From contig CAVYTA010000006.1 of the NCBI GenBank assembly GCA_963771355.1, positions 320,322 through 384,321 on the forward strand: DNA of 64,000 bases, in the 5' to 3' direction. The position numbers and the translations under genes were made by a program. Numbering within the stretch: position 1 is the stretch's first letter; each line of letters opens with the position of its first letter. Below the pieces are notes generated by a model. That model saw nothing but the letters and a program-made list of their open reading frames with translations, had not been told where the DNA came from and did no database searches. This document shows, in pieces, positions 974 through 32,837 of this stretch. This DNA is from an uncultured Candidatus Rokubacteria bacterium (GTDB taxonomy: Bacteria > Methylomirabilota > Methylomirabilia > Rokubacteriales > CSP1-6).

Positions 974-1231
974 GCTAGCGCTAAAGGTGTGCGGGCCTCG
1001 TATGAATTCGGCGGCAGACACCGGGGGCCGGAAGGTATGCCGAGCCAGGGTAGGTCCTACACACTAGGAAAATGGATACCCAAGATGGATCTTGACGGGA
1101 CGCGTACTTACGAGGGGACCAGCGCTGGCATATCTGATGCTGCCCCAGGAGTGCAGCCCGCGTCGCCAGGTTTCGTCAGTGCGCTGACACCTTCGACGCC
1201 TGGGCGATTCCAGTAACCCAGGAGGTCTGGC

Positions 1232-1669
1232 ATGACAGCATATCGGTCATTCGTGCTCGCGCTCGCAGTCACGGTCCTGGCGGCAGGGCCGGCGCTCGCC
1301 AAGGGCGGGGGTGGGGGCGCTGGTGGCGGGGGTGGGGCGGGAGGCGGTGGCGGTGCCGCCGGCGGAAACGCGGGAGGCAACGGGGGCGGTAACGGTAACG
1401 CGGGCGGCAATGGCAACGGCGTCGCTGCCGGCCAGGGTGGCGGGAACGGTCAGTCAGTGGGTGCCGGTCAGTCAGGAGGCCCTGGCCACACAGTGGGCGC
1501 TGGGCGCGGCACCGCGCTCACCGCACCCGGCAGCCAGCATCGTTCCGATACCGCCACCGGGCGCCTTTCCAGCCCGACGCCGGGACACGCGAATCCTCCC
1601 AGTGGGGTGACACCGGGCTTCGGTCACGTCGGCACCGTGCCGACGACTCCCGGCCACCAAGCGCCGTAA
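1232..1669 (+). CDS. Secreted glycine-rich low-complexity protein (signal peptide + GGxGG/GGNG repeats + Thr/Pro/His-rich tail)
   Basis: AGGAGG Shine-Dalgarno (SD) 7 nt upstream of the ATG. N-terminus MTAYRSFVLALAVTVLAAGPALA|KGGGG is a classical Sec signal with an AxA cleavage site. ~60% Gly over residues 25-95. The C-terminal 50 aa are rich in T/P/H/G. It lies downstream of an unusually AT-richer 250-bp stretch (985-1230, ~52% GC). Confidence 0.7.
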   Translation: MTAYRSFVLALAVTVLAAGPALAKGGGGGAGGGGGAGGGGGAAGGNAGGNGGGNGNAGGNGNGVAAGQGGGNGQSVGAGQSGGPGHTVGAGRGTALTAPGSQHRSDTATGRLSSPTPGHANPPSGVTPGFGHVGTVPTTPGHQAP

Positions 1670-2935: not shown

Positions 2936-4045
2936 CTAGTCCAGCCAGTCCTCGTCCTTCAGTTTCTTCGGTAGGTACGTCTTCGTGAGGTAGCGGAAGT
3001 CCTTGTTCGCCAGCGCGTCGAGCTCGTACTTGAGCCCGCTGCCGAGCATGCGCTTGATCTCTTCCTGCCAGGGTTTCTTTTCGAACCAGCGATACTTCAG
3101 GAGCTCCTTGGCTCGGCTGATGTCCTTGTCGTTGAGCTTGATGCCGACGTTGCGGGGCAGGCCGTAGGCGTCCGCGTCGGCGCTGGAGAGGCCGATGAAC
3201 TTGGCTTTGGGGATGGCCATACGCTCGCTCTCGAAGGCGAGGTTGATGGAGCCCTGCTTCACCACCGAGTAGATGTAGTAGCCCCAGGGGTCGTTGTCCA
3301 CGAGGACGTAGACGGGCAGCCTGTACTCCTCGTGGAGGCGCCGGGCCAGGCGGCGGACGCCGCGCGGGGGCTGGCCGTTGCCGGTGAGGAGCACGCAGTT
3401 GTAGCGGCGCCAGAACTTGTCCTCGGAGAGGCGGTTCCACTGGGTGCCCTTCTCGACGAGGAGGACGAAGTCGGCCGTGCAGCGGCGGATCTCGATGTAC
3501 TCGGGCTCCACGATGGACGGCACGGAGTAGCCGCCCTTGCCCAGGCGCGCGCAGTCCACCCGGTCGCCGTCGTCGCCGAACACCACCGGCCCCACGATGC
3601 TGCCGGCGTTCTCCGCGCGCACGTGGAGCTCCTCGCGGAGGGCGGCGAGCGTGACCTCCAGGTCCTCGATCAGCGGATCGGACTCGTTCTGGTTGTCGAA
3701 GGTGTTCTCGTGCGAGCCCTTCATGGTGTGCTTGGTGCGGTAGTAGATCTCGCGGAGCGAGGTGGTGAGGTTCGCCCGCTGGAGCTCCGAGAGCGCGTCC
3801 GCCACCAGCACGGTCTGCATGAACTTCTTCGCCATGCCCACGTTGAAGAAGTTGCGCGCCTGCTTGCGCTTGCCCAGCTCGATGATGCCGCGCTTGGCGT
3901 TGAAGTTGATGTTGGCCAGGCTCCGCACGGGGATGGCCAGCGTCGGGTCCTTGCTCTTCTCCGCCGCGGTGATGACCGTGTCGGCCACGCTGATGAGCTT
4001 CTTCTCCACCGCGCCCGTCTTCTTCGCCGCCGCCGCTTTGGCCAT
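2936..4045 (-). CDS. top6A: DNA topoisomerase VI subunit A (Spo11/Top6A; type IIB topoisomerase catalytic subunit)
   Basis: 369 aa. Conserved catalytic-tyrosine motif REIYYRTKH in the CAP-like domain. Toprim DxD motif in VLVDNDPWGYYIY. Size typical of archaeal Top6A. AAGGA SD upstream of the ATG at 4043-4045. Confidence 0.85.
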   Translation of the reverse strand: MAKAAAAKKTGAVEKKLISVADTVITAAEKSKDPTLAIPVRSLANINFNAKRGIIELGKRKQARNFFNVGMAKKFMQTVLVADALSELQRANLTTSLREIYYRTKHTMKGSHENTFDNQNESDPLIEDLEVTLAALREELHVRAENAGSIVGPVVFGDDGDRVDCARLGKGGYSVPSIVEPEYIEIRRCTADFVLLVEKGTQWNRLSEDKFWRRYNCVLLTGNGQPPRGVRRLARRLHEEYRLPVYVLVDNDPWGYYIYSVVKQGSINLAFESERMAIPKAKFIGLSSADADAYGLPRNVGIKLNDKDISRAKELLKYRWFEKKPWQEEIKRMLGSGLKYELDALANKDFRYLTKTYLPKKLKDEDWLD

Positions 4046-4057
4046 GAGTTCTGTCCT

Positions 4058-5041
4058 TTACTCGACGATCTGGTCCGCACGCAAGAGGAGCGTCTGGGGC
4101 AGCGTGAGGCCGAGCGCCTTGGCCGTCCGGAGATTGATGGCGAGGTAATAGCGGCTGGGCCGCTCGACGGGGAGGCTGCTCGGGGTGGCGCCCTTGAAAA
4201 GTCGGTCCACGTAGCTCGCGGCCCGGCGGTAGTTTTCGTCCGGGCTCGCGCCGTAAGACATGAGGGCGCCGTCCTGAACGGGGACGCTCACCTCGTACAT
4301 GGCGGGGATCCGGTGCATGACGGCGAACTCGATGACGCGCTTGCGATTGAGCAAGGTGAGCGCGTCCGTCACCAGGAACATGGCGTCGGGACGACGCTGC
4401 GTCATGGCGGCGAAGGCCACGTCGAAGTCATTCGGCTCGCGGACGCCGAGGGCCTGCACAGTGACGCGGAGGACCTGGGCGGCCTTCTCCACGTTCTGAT
4501 AGCGCATGGTCATGCCCAGGTCGTCGGCGTTCCAGAGGACGGCGATGCGCTCGGCCTTCGGCACGGCCTCCTTCAGGATCTCCAGGCGCTTGGCGCTGAG
4601 CTCGGCGGACTGATCAGTCACGCCCGTCACGTTGCCGCCGGGATGGGCGAGGCTGTTGATCAGGCCGAGGCCGTCGGCATCCCCCACGAGGGCCATCACG
4701 ATAGGAATGGTGGAGGTCGCTTGCCTGGAGGCGGCGGTCGCGGGCCCGCCGGCCGTCACGATGACGTCGACCTTCTCCCCCACCAGCTCGGTCGCGAGCG
4801 GAGGGAGCCGCTCTTGTCGCGCGTCGGCCCACCGGGCGACGTACACGACGTTCTGCCCCTCGACGTAGCCGAGATCCTTCAAGGCCTGCCGCAAAACTGA
4901 AGGCGCGGCGCCGTCCGGTGGCCGCGCGTTACCGGACAGGAAGCCGACGCGCCACGTCTTCCCCCGCTGCTGCGCATCGGCAGTGGCCGGCGCGGCGAGG
5001 AATGAGAGGGCGAGGAGGAGCGCAATCGCGGCGCGCAGCAT
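4058..5041 (-). CDS. Periplasmic ABC-transporter substrate-binding protein, PF04392 (ABC_sub_bind) family, orphan (no permease or ATPase adjacent)
   Basis: 327 aa. Signal peptide MLRAAIALLLALSFLAAPATADA. Family-typical segments (VGFLSGN..., KVDVIVTAGGPATAA..., IPIVMALVGD..., NVTGVTDQS...). Its ATG (5039-5041) overlaps the top6B TGA (5041-5043) as TGATG. Its stop lies 12 nt before the top6A start. Confidence 0.8.
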   Translation of the reverse strand: MLRAAIALLLALSFLAAPATADAQQRGKTWRVGFLSGNARPPDGAAPSVLRQALKDLGYVEGQNVVYVARWADARQERLPPLATELVGEKVDVIVTAGGPATAASRQATSTIPIVMALVGDADGLGLINSLAHPGGNVTGVTDQSAELSAKRLEILKEAVPKAERIAVLWNADDLGMTMRYQNVEKAAQVLRVTVQALGVREPNDFDVAFAAMTQRRPDAMFLVTDALTLLNRKRVIEFAVMHRIPAMYEVSVPVQDGALMSYGASPDENYRRAASYVDRLFKGATPSSLPVERPSRYYLAINLRTAKALGLTLPQTLLLRADQIVE

Positions 5042-7029
5042 CACTTGCGCTTGGCGGGCTTGGCCTTGCGCTTCGCGGCCTTCGCGGGCTTGGGCGCACG
5101 CTTGGTGGCCGTCGCGGTCTTCGTACCCTTCGCCTTTGCGCCTTTCGCCTTCACGGCCTTCGCCTTCTTCCCGCGCGCGGGCTTGGCGGTATCCGGCTCG
5201 GGCGCTTCGATCGCCGCCGGCTCCACCACCCCCGCCGCCTCCGGGAGCACCGGCGCCTCGCCCTCCGCGCCCTCCGGCGTCACGATGATCGAGTGCGGCA
5301 GGCCCTCGGGCCCGCTGTCGTGGCCGAGGATCTGGTCGGTCTTGGCCCCGCCGGTGCGCTTCATGGCGATCTTCTGGAGCTGGGCCTTGAGCTTCTCCTT
5401 GGGCAGCTTGCCGCCCTTGAGCCGGGCGCAGGCCTCCACGACCTCCTCGATGTAGAGCTCGAAGATGTTGCGCCGGCGGAACTCGCCCTTGGCCCGCTCG
5501 CGCCGCCGGAGGAAGACGCCGAGCCGCCGCCCGCACTCCTGCAGCGCGAGCTTGATCTCCTTCCGGATCTCGTCGTAGTCGGCGATGGCTTCCTTGGACT
5601 CGCTGGTGAACGGCACCCAGACCGAGGCCATGTGGACGAAGATCACCATGGGGCCGGCGGGGAGCGCGCCCCGCGACTGGGCGATGCCGTAGTTGCGCCA
5701 CGCGGTCTCGAGCGCGGCCTTGAAGGTGGCGCAGGCCGACTGCTGGTAGAGGAGGGGCACGCGGTTGGCGTAGCGGATGACGCGGGCCAGCTCACTGTCC
5801 TCTTCCGCCTGCTCGCCCTCGGCCAGCGGCACCGCGGGCGCGTCCAGGGCGGCGGCCTGGCCCGGGCCCTTGCCGAAGGCCAGGCCCGCCTCGATGACGA
5901 ACGGGTTGCCGCGGTACACCGACGGCGGCCGGGTCACCGCCGTGTAGAACTCCCCTTTGATCTGCTTGTAGAGGCCGTGGAGGATCGCCTTCTCGCCGAT
6001 GGGCGAGATGCAGTTGGACGGCGGCGCCATGATCTTGGTGGCCTGGATGGCCTTGTAGAGCGCCTCCGCGTCGGCGCCGTGGATGTTGCGGGGGCGCGCG
6101 TTCGGGTTGAGCTTGGCCGTCTTGCTGATCTCCTGGGCCAGCGCGGGAGACACCCGGCTGAAGTCGCCCGAGAGAAAGCCGGAGAGCCAGTGGCTGCGCG
6201 TGTCGTGGAGCATGCGCAGGAGCACGCCGAACTCGATCCCATAGGGATGCGGCTTGATCTCGCTCGGCTGGGGCGGCAGCTCCTCGATCGTCCGCGGGTA
6301 CTCGCGGGTCTCGCCGTCCGGGGCGTGGTAGACGAGCTGCACGTGCGGGTTGGCGATGGCGACCTGCTCGAGGAACTCGTCCACCGAGGCGCGGCCCTTC
6401 TGGTAGCGCCCCTCGATCTCGAGGGTCACCTGGGTGCCGCGCTCGTGCGCCCAGTCGATCTTCTTGCTCTCGAAGATCCGGGGCTCGTTCTTCTTGGTGT
6501 CGATCTGCACCTCGAAGTAGTGCGCGGCCGCCCGCGCGCCGGTGCGCGAGGTGATCTGCACCGGCTTGCCGGTGGTGATCTGGGCATACATGCCGGCCGC
6601 GGAGATGCCGATGCCCTGCTGGCCCCGGCTCATGCGGAGGCGATGGAACTTCGAGCCGTAGAGGAGCTTGGCGAAGATGGGCGGGATCTGCTGGCGGACG
6701 ATGCCGGGGCCATTGTCGCTGACGGTGACGCGGAACCGGGTGGCCTGGCTGGCCGGCGGCGGCGGCGCGCCATTGCTCGACGCCACTTCCAGCGTGACGA
6801 CCACCTCGGGCAGGATGCCGGCTTCCTCGGCGGCGTCCAGCGCATTGTCGACGGCCTCCTTGACGCAGGTGAGGAGGGCCTTGCGCGGATTGTCGAAGCC
6901 GAGGAGGTGGCGGTTCTTGGTGAAGAACTCGGAGACGGAGATGTCGCGCTGGCGGGCGCCCATCTCGGCGGCGGACGGCGGCGCCACCTTCGGCGCGGCG
7001 GGCGGAGCCTTGGCGAGCGCGATGGCCAT
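5041..7029 (-). CDS. top6B: DNA topoisomerase VI subunit B (GHKL ATPase + transducer) with a C-terminal Lys/Ala-rich histone-H1-like basic tail
   Basis: 662 aa. Bergerat-fold motifs are present: N-box EAVDNALDA, G1 VSDNGPGI, G2 GQQGIGIS. N-terminal region resembles Top6B (ISVSEFFTKNRHLLGF). The last ~60 aa are ...AKPARGKKAKAVKAKGAKAKGTKTATATKRAPKPAKAAKRKAKPAKRK. Confidence 0.85.
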   Translation of the reverse strand: MAIALAKAPPAAPKVAPPSAAEMGARQRDISVSEFFTKNRHLLGFDNPRKALLTCVKEAVDNALDAAEEAGILPEVVVTLEVASSNGAPPPPASQATRFRVTVSDNGPGIVRQQIPPIFAKLLYGSKFHRLRMSRGQQGIGISAAGMYAQITTGKPVQITSRTGARAAAHYFEVQIDTKKNEPRIFESKKIDWAHERGTQVTLEIEGRYQKGRASVDEFLEQVAIANPHVQLVYHAPDGETREYPRTIEELPPQPSEIKPHPYGIEFGVLLRMLHDTRSHWLSGFLSGDFSRVSPALAQEISKTAKLNPNARPRNIHGADAEALYKAIQATKIMAPPSNCISPIGEKAILHGLYKQIKGEFYTAVTRPPSVYRGNPFVIEAGLAFGKGPGQAAALDAPAVPLAEGEQAEEDSELARVIRYANRVPLLYQQSACATFKAALETAWRNYGIAQSRGALPAGPMVIFVHMASVWVPFTSESKEAIADYDEIRKEIKLALQECGRRLGVFLRRRERAKGEFRRRNIFELYIEEVVEACARLKGGKLPKEKLKAQLQKIAMKRTGGAKTDQILGHDSGPEGLPHSIIVTPEGAEGEAPVLPEAAGVVEPAAIEAPEPDTAKPARGKKAKAVKAKGAKAKGTKTATATKRAPKPAKAAKRKAKPAKRK

Positions 7030-7058
7030 GCCCCACTTGATACCAGACCCGTGCTCGA

Positions 7059-7853
7059 TTGGCCCCCCGAAAATGTCCGTGGCAGAATGACGGCATGAGT
7101 ACCTCGACTCGCCTGGCCGTGCTCAGCGTGCTCGTCGCGATCGGCGCCGTCGCGACCTACGTGCTCCTCCTCGGGGTGGCGGTGGTGCGGAACCACCCGG
7201 AGGGCTATGTGATCGCGTTCGCGGTGGCGACGGGCCTGGCGGTGCTCGCCGTGGTTCGCGCGCGGACACGGCGCTGGCCCGCCTGGGTGGCGCTGGGCGT
7301 CACGAGCCTCCTGCTGATCGCCGGCGCCTGGTTCAACTTCGTGGTGACGCGGGTGCCCGATGCTCCGGTGGCGTTCAAGGTGGGCGAGCCGGCACCGGAC
7401 TTCACCTTGCCCGATGCGGCGGGCCGTCCCGTCGCGCTGGCGGACTATCGCGGCAAGAAGCCGGTGGTGCTCGTCTTCTACCGCGGCTACTGGTGACCGT
7501 TCTGCGTGTCCGAGCTCCAAGGTCTTGGAGCCCAGCTTTCGGAGGCCGAGCAGGCGGGCGTCGAGATCATCGCCATCTCGCCCGATCCCAACCAGCGCAG
7601 CCAGGAGCTCGCCGAGGGCCTGCGCCTCGGCTATCGGTTCGTCGCCGACGGCGATCTCGCGGTGGCGCGGCGCTACGGGCTCGTCCACGCGGGCGGGGGG
7701 CCGGAGGGAAAGGACGTGCCGCGCCCGGCCACGGTGGTGCTGGACAAGCAGGGGGTCGTGCGCTGGTTCTCGGCCAGCCACAACTTCCAGGTGCGGCCCG
7801 CTCCCGGCGAGGTGCTCCGCGTGGTTCGTTCCCTCGTGGCGGAAAAGGGCTAG
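7059..7853 (+). CDS. Candidate selenoprotein: membrane-anchored peroxiredoxin/redoxin-family (AhpC/TSA-like) protein with in-frame UGA (Sec) at 7494-7496 in a U-P-F-C redox motif
   Basis: ORFs 7059..7496 and 7506..7853 share a frame and are separated only by TGA. The combined translation gives 2-3 N-terminal TM helices, then ...FKVGEPAPDFTLPDAAGRPVALADYRGKKPVVLVFYRGYW-U-PFCVSELQGLGAQL..., the canonical peroxiredoxin/BCP architecture. The TGA sits exactly where the peroxidatic Cys belongs. A SECIS-like hairpin lies 17 nt downstream. An alternative start is the ATG at 7095 (MSTSTRL...). Confidence 0.65.
7514..7531 (+). promoter_or_regulatory. Putative bacterial selenocysteine insertion sequence (SECIS) hairpin: 7-bp stem GCUCCAA/UUGGAGC with GGUC apical loop
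   Basis: Perfect 7-bp stem (7514-7520 pairing with 7525-7531) closing a 4-nt loop GGUC (7521-7524). It begins 17 nt after the in-frame UGA (7494-7496). This position and the G/U-containing apical loop resemble the E. coli fdhF SECIS upper stem-loop. Confidence 0.5.

Positions 7854-29843: not shown

Positions 29844-32837
<2,994 letters not shown>

Follow-up and report, generated by a model that had tools for sequence, protein, structure and literature searches.

A lysine-rich basic tail on topoisomerase VI subunit B of a Candidatus Rokubacteria bacterium: conservation, recurrence on bacterial homologues and predicted DNA binding

Basic disordered DNA-binding tails are already known from topoisomerases and nucleoid proteins. 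TopA of the actinobacterium Streptomyces coelicolor ends with a low-complexity Lys/Ala(/Thr/Pro)-rich tail of tens of residues; its lysine repeats, a feature described as typical of GC-rich bacteria, are modulated by terminal acidic residues (PMC5714199). The C-terminal region of topoisomerase II-alpha, including its ChT domain, has a DNA affinity similar to that of histone H1, tethers the enzyme to chromatin and controls its residence on the chromosome (Lane et al. 2013, PMC3824022). As regards topoisomerase VI (topo VI), the M. mazei enzyme is slow, highly distributive and acts as a sensor of DNA crossings (PMC8837201), and to engage DNA it requires the basic surfaces of its subunit B (Top6B), those of the C-terminal stalk among them (PMC5922973). 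Top6B of the M. mazei type carries an immunoglobulin (Ig)-like C-terminal domain (CTD) (PMC11302465, PMC13040014); for plant TopoVIB, a contact of the CTD with BIN4 and RHL1, two DNA-binding partners, has been predicted (PMC9665070). Among the bacterial topo VI-B proteins tested, none has an Ig fold; BIN4 and RHL1 are likewise reported to be missing from bacteria, in which the cellular role of topo VI has been described as puzzling (PMC11302465). Here, we analyse a Top6B encoded in a stretch of 64,000 nucleotides from an uncultured Candidatus Rokubacteria bacterium (contig CAVYTA010000006.1; hereafter, the window), which ends with a lysine-rich basic tail that is maintained in every close homologue.

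The open reading frame (ORF) at 5041..7029 of the minus strand encodes 662 residues, followed by a TGA stop at 5041-5043, and its sequence matches clearly identify the product as Top6B. Indeed, the NCBIfam equivalog NF003218 covers residues 22-564 with 658 bits (cutoff 274), TIGR01052 scores 504 bits (cutoff 381), the M. mazei chain 2q2e_B aligns contiguously with residues 17-529, spanning the H2TH region (E=4e-136), and S. shibatae Top6B aligns with residues 29-537. Past the end of these alignments and of the profile match, the protein continues as an extension composed of three blocks, namely an invariant motif, an acidic linker and a basic tail. The tail thus lies beyond both the curated Top6B profile and the two solved archaeal structures. 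The first-pass annotation of this DNA had noted it as an addition to canonical Top6B, and the peptide quoted there is the exact C-terminus of the ORF.

The first block, GPEGLPHSIIVTPEGAEGEAPVLP (residues 573-596; 5242..5313, minus strand), directly follows the region covered by the archaeal structures and by NCBIfam, and sequence conservation extends through P596. It has the near-invariant layout GPEGLPHSIIVTPEG.EGEAP in 86 homologues, continuing as EGEAPVLP, with P574, E575, G576, L577, P578, S580, I581, T584, G587, E589, G590, A592 and P593 strictly invariant. This GLPHSIIVTPEG motif has a counterpart in Planctomycetota relatives, where FGENVLIV stands at the equivalent place, and it resembles a short docking element that forms a strand, Top6A being a possible partner. 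The second block is a variable acidic Pro/Ala-rich linker (residues 597-615; 5185..5241, minus strand), belonging to a longer acidic stretch, residues 586-613, with eight D/E and no K/R. The third block, delimited by composition, is the Lys/Ala/Pro-rich tail itself, K616-K662 (5044..5184, minus strand), 47 residues with a net charge of +21. It contains 17 K, 4 R, no D/E and a single hydrophobic residue (about 30% Ala, 11% Pro), and the last 54 residues of the protein have an isoelectric point of 11.7. Given that K+R make up 12.7% of the rest of Top6B, the chance of finding at least 21 of them in 47 residues is 6e-8. The tail had initially been described as about 60 residues long and placed at 5041..5230. 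A basic tail is indeed there, but this range corresponds to residues 600-662 plus the stop and so takes in part of the acidic linker, the basic part being only the last of the three blocks. Among the ORFs of the window supported by G+C content at third codon positions (GC3), Lys-rich basic stretches occur only in this tail and at the N-terminus of a GAF kinase discussed below.

To assess conservation, we used the 120 nearest homologues, which are 82-99% identical to the window protein and come from many samples; the two with a source name are Methylomirabilota. The basic tail is present in 120/120 of them, though its sequence is barely alignable. In 116 of these proteins the conserved HSIIVT motif gave an anchor for the extension, and the linker was counted from the motif end. 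The linker then has a length of 22-36 residues, of which 5-11 are acidic and no more than two basic; the tail is 17-71 residues long, with a net charge of +8 to +26 (median +20) and 0-3 D/E. The acidic-then-basic order is kept in 116/116 of the anchored homologues, a net tail charge of at least +10 in 115/116, and 115/116 finish with a K/R cluster. At the nucleotide level, an independent assembly (L081) encodes a Top6B of the same 662-residue length, 99% identical, in which one tail residue differs. In a more distant homologue (L082, 90% identical), the tail differs from that of the window by in-frame indels of 3 and 12 nucleotides, and the differing codons are about evenly divided between synonymous (5) and non-synonymous (6). 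The tail is thus a genuine extension, translated in frame and maintained with conserved charge in every close homologue.

The composition of the tail is also distinct from that of the remaining protein. In the window Top6B the K:R ratio is 17:4 in the tail versus 35:42 in the core, and when the 120 homologues are pooled, K/(K+R) reaches 0.66 in tails versus 0.43 in cores (p=3e-90, relatedness being ignored). In a window with a G+C content of 70.7%, the tail has a GC3 of 0.91 and 16 AAG to 1 AAA among its Lys codons, both as in the core. Since lysine is favoured although genomic GC pressure favours arginine, and since the charge is kept, selection seems to act on a physicochemical property, which speaks against neutral drift. 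Overall, these sequence patterns argue for selection on charge and lysine content, with the sequence itself free to turn over.

How, then, does this tail compare with the described ones? The closest likeness is to the actinobacterial TopA tail, with its similar composition and a GC-rich host, and in both cases the length differs from species to species but the general character is retained. However, TopA is a type IA monomer and Top6B belongs to a type IIB A2B2 enzyme. Moreover, the TopA repeats are spaced as K1-2(A/T/N)3-5, whereas the basic residues of the Top6B tail are mostly 0-2 positions apart; a search of the tail for TopA-type lysine repeats gave a single match (KTATAT), so that it does not qualify as a tail of that definition. 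The acidic block also lies before the tail in Top6B but at the end in TopA, and the two share no common ancestry. A likeness to histone H1 and AlgP had been noted at the first reading, and it holds as far as composition is concerned: like the H1 CTD, AlgP, HupS and Hlp-type HU proteins, the tail is a K/A/P-rich polycation, which by analogy would be disordered and bind the DNA backbone non-specifically. It does not hold at the level of families or repeats. A Pfam scan of residues 572-662 at E<=10 returned no family match, Linker_histone included, the remainder of the protein being Top6B, and an NCBIfam scan of the last 91 residues, run with relaxed thresholds, was equally negative. AlgP-type H1-like proteins are defined by tandem KPAA-type repeats. 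The tail contains no KPAA, two KPAK and, despite its H1-like composition (31% K, 30% A, 11% P), no [ST]PKK motif. Furthermore, Top6B has neither the winged-helix globular domain of H1 nor the HU fold, and its tail sits on an enzyme rather than on an architectural protein. As judged from sequence, the resemblance to H1 and AlgP is thus compositional, not homologous.

Among type II topoisomerases, the topo II-alpha C-terminal region provides another parallel, as a disordered, basic and catalytically dispensable C-terminus; it belongs, however, to a eukaryotic type IIA enzyme, extends over several hundred residues, is phospho-regulated and binds histone H3, whereas the Top6B tail counts 47 residues and is not known to be regulated in such a way. 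Within the topo VI family, the Ig-like CTD of M. mazei and the CTD of plant TopoVIB occupy the same post-stalk position as the tail and are thought to be accessory or localising rather than catalytic (PMC13040014, PMC9665070, PMC11302465). These archaeal and plant appendages are folded domains or separate proteins, whereas the tail would, by analogy, act in cis and in a disordered state. The window Top6B has no Ig-like CTD: the 2q2e_B alignment stops at query residue 529 (residue 481 of the 621 of the chain), after which come the helical stalk, the short motif and the low-complexity sequence. The view that a canonical Top6B ends with the transducer therefore fits the S. shibatae type but not the M. 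mazei type with its Ig-like CTD, nor the many other Top6B that carry acidic or mixed C-terminal tails.

To examine other lineages, species-representative genomes were scanned, yielding at least 80 loci (L001-L080) ranked by similarity to the window protein. After removal of incomplete genes, 72 complete Top6B were kept among the matches listed, 52 bacterial and 20 archaeal, and a tail was called when 25 consecutive residues reached a net charge of +8 or more and contained several Lys. By this measure, 20 of the 52 bacterial proteins possess a Lys-rich tail, which is C-terminal in 11 and N-terminal in 13, with 4 proteins having both, while none of the 20 archaeal proteins has one at either end (Fisher p=7e-4, phylogeny being ignored). 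The tail is therefore not common to all Top6B. Nor is it a peculiarity of one protein, as the first report had implied, since it is shared by all close homologues and recurs at the N- or C-terminus of other bacterial Top6B. In many bacterial Top6B whose chain stops right after the stalk (...LERSRKL), a Lys-rich extension of 40-90 residues is found at the N-terminus instead (for instance L015, L023, L031-L033, L035 and P0133); that of P0133 is very H1-like, beginning with MAAKKTKATAKKAAKKTGKKAAK, and those of L015, L023 and L031-L033 are similar. The closest species-genome relatives among the matches listed, L001 and L002, combine a short C-terminal tail with a Lys-rich N-terminal extension. 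Low-GC genomes (L008, L031 and L076) carry poly-K versions, which indicates that the tail does not simply result from high GC. When representatives were chosen at 50% identity, the whole Methylomirabilota-type clade formed one cluster, and the next relatives, at most about 60% identical, have heterogeneous termini.

The bacterial proteins fall into two lineages. In the first, Top6B has an extended C-terminus, the accompanying Top6A is 49-91% identical to that of the window, and both C- and N-terminal tails occur. In the second, Top6B ends after the stalk (...LERSRKL), Top6A is 33-37% identical, and tails are N-terminal only. The short and extended C-terminal types were separated by a regular expression, L030, L039 and L056 being assigned by eye. 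This partition agrees with the two horizontal transfers of Top6 proposed by Allen and Maxwell (PMC11302465). Collectively, the comparison indicates that the window tail is one instance of a recurrent, position-independent decoration of bacterial Top6B. Two records in these sets have labels that seem not to fit their sequences: P0070, 85% identical to the window Top6B, is labelled Bathyarchaeia, and a contig labelled Lachnospiraceae (L077) encodes a Top6B of archaeal type, in which a long CTD and an acidic tail are present. Both are probably binning or labelling errors.

The first-pass annotation suggested that the tail could confer non-specific DNA affinity or nucleoid targeting, and the former is still the most plausible reading of its predicted role. 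We propose, with a probability of about 0.6, that the tail is a disordered, sequence-independent DNA-binding or nucleoid-tethering appendage, a prediction built on its composition, on the conserved charge and the preference for lysine, on the occurrence of tails at either terminus and on the analogous tails described above. The archaeal structures show the C-terminal Top6B stalk joining Top6A beside the bound G-segment, with the N-terminus at the ATP gate. The tail would hang on the acidic flexible linker leaving the end of the stalk, where Top6B meets Top6A, and a 47-residue polycation on a flexible linker of about 30 residues could reach the DNA flanking the gate. There, it would contact the DNA backbone electrostatically, without sequence specificity, and raise the local affinity for DNA, either by tethering the enzyme to the nucleoid or by 'fly-casting' capture of a DNA segment. 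Dissociation of the enzyme could be slowed in this way, and a slow, distributive, crossing-sensing topo VI might become more effective on a bacterial chromosome. Since tails are found at either terminus, a general electrostatic affinity for DNA, or nucleoid tethering, seems to fit better than a geometric role.

Several points weigh against this proposal. The DNA binding, the disorder and the kinetic effect of the tail are all features that we infer, and a polycationic tail can associate with RNA, polyphosphate, acidic proteins or membranes as well. In a structure model computed from 86 close homologues, the tail has a predicted local distance difference test (pLDDT) score below 50 and no secondary structure; nevertheless, this is weak evidence of disorder, the whole model being poor (mean pLDDT 46, predicted template modelling score 0.31), probably because the homologue alignment lacks diversity. 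The contrast between bacteria and archaea comes from an identity-ranked sample, limited to the matches listed, and ignores phylogeny. Finally, about 60% of the bacterial Top6B in that sample lack a strong tail, so that the tail is not required for topo VI activity generally.

Another possibility, which we regard as unlikely, is that the acidic linker works together with the basic tail as a single regulatory module of an autoinhibitory or ampholytic kind. The acidic part could mimic DNA on the basic surfaces of the stalk or of the WKxY or KGRR elements, or else neutralise the tail, until displaced by DNA, and the module would then tune the DNA-stimulated ATPase and gate closure rather than simply add affinity. 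The strict order of the two blocks in all anchored homologues, with their nearly exclusive charges, is consistent with such a module, as is the invariant EG.EGEAP segment directly adjoining the linker. Likewise, acidic residues are known to modulate the lysine repeats of TopA (PMC5714199), and DNA-sensing basic surfaces of Top6B are known (PMC5922973) that could be the targets of the linker. In some other bacterial lineages, however, the tail is N-terminal or has no adjoining acidic block, suggesting that selection favours the positive charge as such. A regulatory module would also be compatible with simple DNA tethering, the two being not exclusive.

It is improbable that the tail recognizes something other than chromosomal DNA, such as RNA, polyphosphate, an acidic partner protein or anionic membrane lipids, or that it drives condensates, localising topo VI by one of these means. 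Disordered polycations are promiscuous, and the contact predicted for BIN4 and RHL1 with the plant CTD (PMC9665070) provides a precedent for partner binding at this position. Still, duplex DNA is the only known substrate of the host enzyme, and the tail contains no conserved linear motif, the conserved motif 573-596 lying upstream. The occurrence of tails of very different sequence at either terminus also argues against a specific protein interface.

Quite improbable, in our opinion, is that the tail is a neutral low-complexity sequence, which replication slippage in a GC-rich genome creates and renews and which is tolerated at a free terminus. The tail-coding DNA had been called visibly repetitive, and repeats are indeed present, albeit weak: imperfect tandem periods of 9, 15 and 30 nucleotides with 69-81% matches. 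Since these periods are all multiples of three, they fit growth and shrinkage by slippage. The wide variation of tail length and sequence between close relatives, together with the reported association of lysine repeats with GC-rich bacteria, points in the same direction. Neutral drift, however, would yield truncations, frameshifts and mixed charge, whereas the tail is kept in all 120 homologues with its strong positive charge and nearly no acidic residues, and all indels seen are in frame. In addition, lysine (as AAG) is enriched against GC pressure in a protein whose core prefers arginine, and poly-K tails exist in low-GC lineages. The chance that the extension is an artefact, produced by a frameshift, a sequencing error or read-through past a true upstream stop, is practically negligible, given the identical length in L081, the in-frame indels and few substitutions in L082, the alike ends of the 120 homologues, the core-like GC3 and codon choice of the tail and the conserved TGATG stop-start junction after it.

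In a broader and more tentative view, which is possible but doubtful, Lys-rich disordered tails could be a general, repeatedly evolved adaptation of bacterial topo VI. After transfer from archaea, both lineages would have gained tails at a free terminus, supplying in cis a DNA- or chromosome-engaging function that is met elsewhere by the Ig-like CTD or by BIN4 and RHL1. In the literature that we searched on the distribution, evolution and structure of topo VI, we found no Lys-rich or disordered tail on topo VI-B, nor its recurrence in bacteria. The same literature yielded no biochemistry on bacterial topo VI. The proposed mechanism is unsurprising, and the interest lies in a real and conserved feature of an uncharacterised bacterial enzyme. 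Should DNA affinity or residence time depend on the tail, any construct designed after the archaeal enzymes, which lack one, would give a false picture of bacterial topo VI, and the tail would be the first element to probe for how a distributive, crossing-sensing type IIB enzyme was adapted as a bacterial decatenase. Basic tails at either end of Top6B, seen in about 40% of the bacteria and in no archaeon among the matches listed, offer a cheap, testable comparative pattern. The 'lysine repeat' principle of the type IA TopA would, moreover, come to include a type IIB enzyme as well as phyla beyond Actinobacteria.

The remaining parts of the protein are those of a regular Top6B. The GHKL/Bergerat ATPase region covers residues ~50-176 (6502..6882, minus strand; Pfam PF02518 and PF13589), with PF02518 (HATPase_c) matching residues 50-166 (E=4.5e-10) and the DNGPGI and GxxGxG-type motifs aligned with 2q2e_B. 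The transducer domain, Topo-VIb_trans (PF09239, E=2.8e-55), occupies residues 336-516 (5482..6024, minus strand), as is also seen from the 2q2e_B alignment. Within it, WRNY (residues 444-447) is a conservative variant of WKxY, aligned with WKQY of M. mazei, and W444 and Y447 are invariant in the clade of close homologues. The QKGRA segment, likewise a conservative variant, aligns with M. mazei KGRR but lacks the fourth Arg. The C-terminal helical stalk continues over residues 517-568 (5326..5481, minus strand), as delimited by the S. shibatae and M. mazei alignments, which reach ~529-537, and by the NCBIfam match to 564; the low-confidence structure model places its helices at 522-537, 544-559 and 562-568. 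Two plus-strand ORFs, 4918..7098 and 5045..5455, overlap this gene and were dismissed as the usual shadows of high-GC DNA, the Top6B homology being in the minus frame.

The partner subunit is encoded downstream on the same strand by top6A (2936..4045, minus strand; 369 residues; Pfam TP6A_N, Topo_VI_alpha and TOP6A-Spo11_Toprim), in an operon split by an ABC_sub_bind (PF04392) gene at 4058..5041 of the minus strand. The ATG of the latter (5041-5039) overlaps the top6B stop in the sequence TGATG. Its product is a periplasmic substrate-binding protein with a signal-peptide-like N-terminus, MLRAAIALLLALSFLAAPATADA. Both the insertion and the TGATG junction are also found in L081 and L082, whereas top6A directly follows top6B in L001-L005, L060 and nearly all other loci among the matches listed. 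An unrelated transport gene translationally coupled within a topoisomerase operon is odd. In L060, labelled Candidatus Rokubacteria, the top6B frame is broken, leaving an ORF of 206 residues next to a Top6A that is 94% identical; a long-read indel error is the probable cause.

The second Lys-rich stretch of the window begins the multi-GAF histidine kinase encoded at 29844..32837 (minus strand). This basic N-terminal motif comprises residues 1-34 (32736..32837, minus strand), starts with MRKAKRAKPARAKVKP, and its ATG is located 12 nucleotides after an upstream stop. The M-R-R-G-A-K-P-A-K-A-K motif also starts P0305, P0335, P0344, P0356, P0359 and P0378, the N-termini being MRRGAKPAKARPE in P0305, MERAAKPAKAKVEA in P0344 and P0378, and MHRGAKPTKVKVEA in P0359, while P0335 shows the pattern after an 11-residue lead. 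Since intact relatives share this start, and a fragment 76% identical (P0350) is coding across the alternative start M35, the N-terminal stretch is real. The first-pass annotation had compared it with the Top6B tail. The basic start was confirmed, but it is a short motif with conserved sequence rather than a comparable low-complexity tail, and we therefore rejected it as a tail of the same kind; from the sequences, the two are alike only in composition. More broadly, the motif M-R-R/K-G/A-A-K-P-A-K-A-K-V-E/K-A...RK is conserved among multi-GAF sensor proteins of several metagenome-assembled genomes. The kinase has at least four GAF modules, three of four preceded by an (S/A)LEQQTAT(S/A)(E/R)IL(R/S)VIS linker, which is degenerate before the fourth. 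Elsewhere in the window, the plus-strand ORF 1232..1669 is Gly/Asn-rich (GGGGGAGGGGGAGGGGGAAGGNAGGNGGGNGNAGGNGNG) with a signal-peptide-like N-terminus, and a poly-Pro ORF at 1108..1416 of the minus strand mirrors it.

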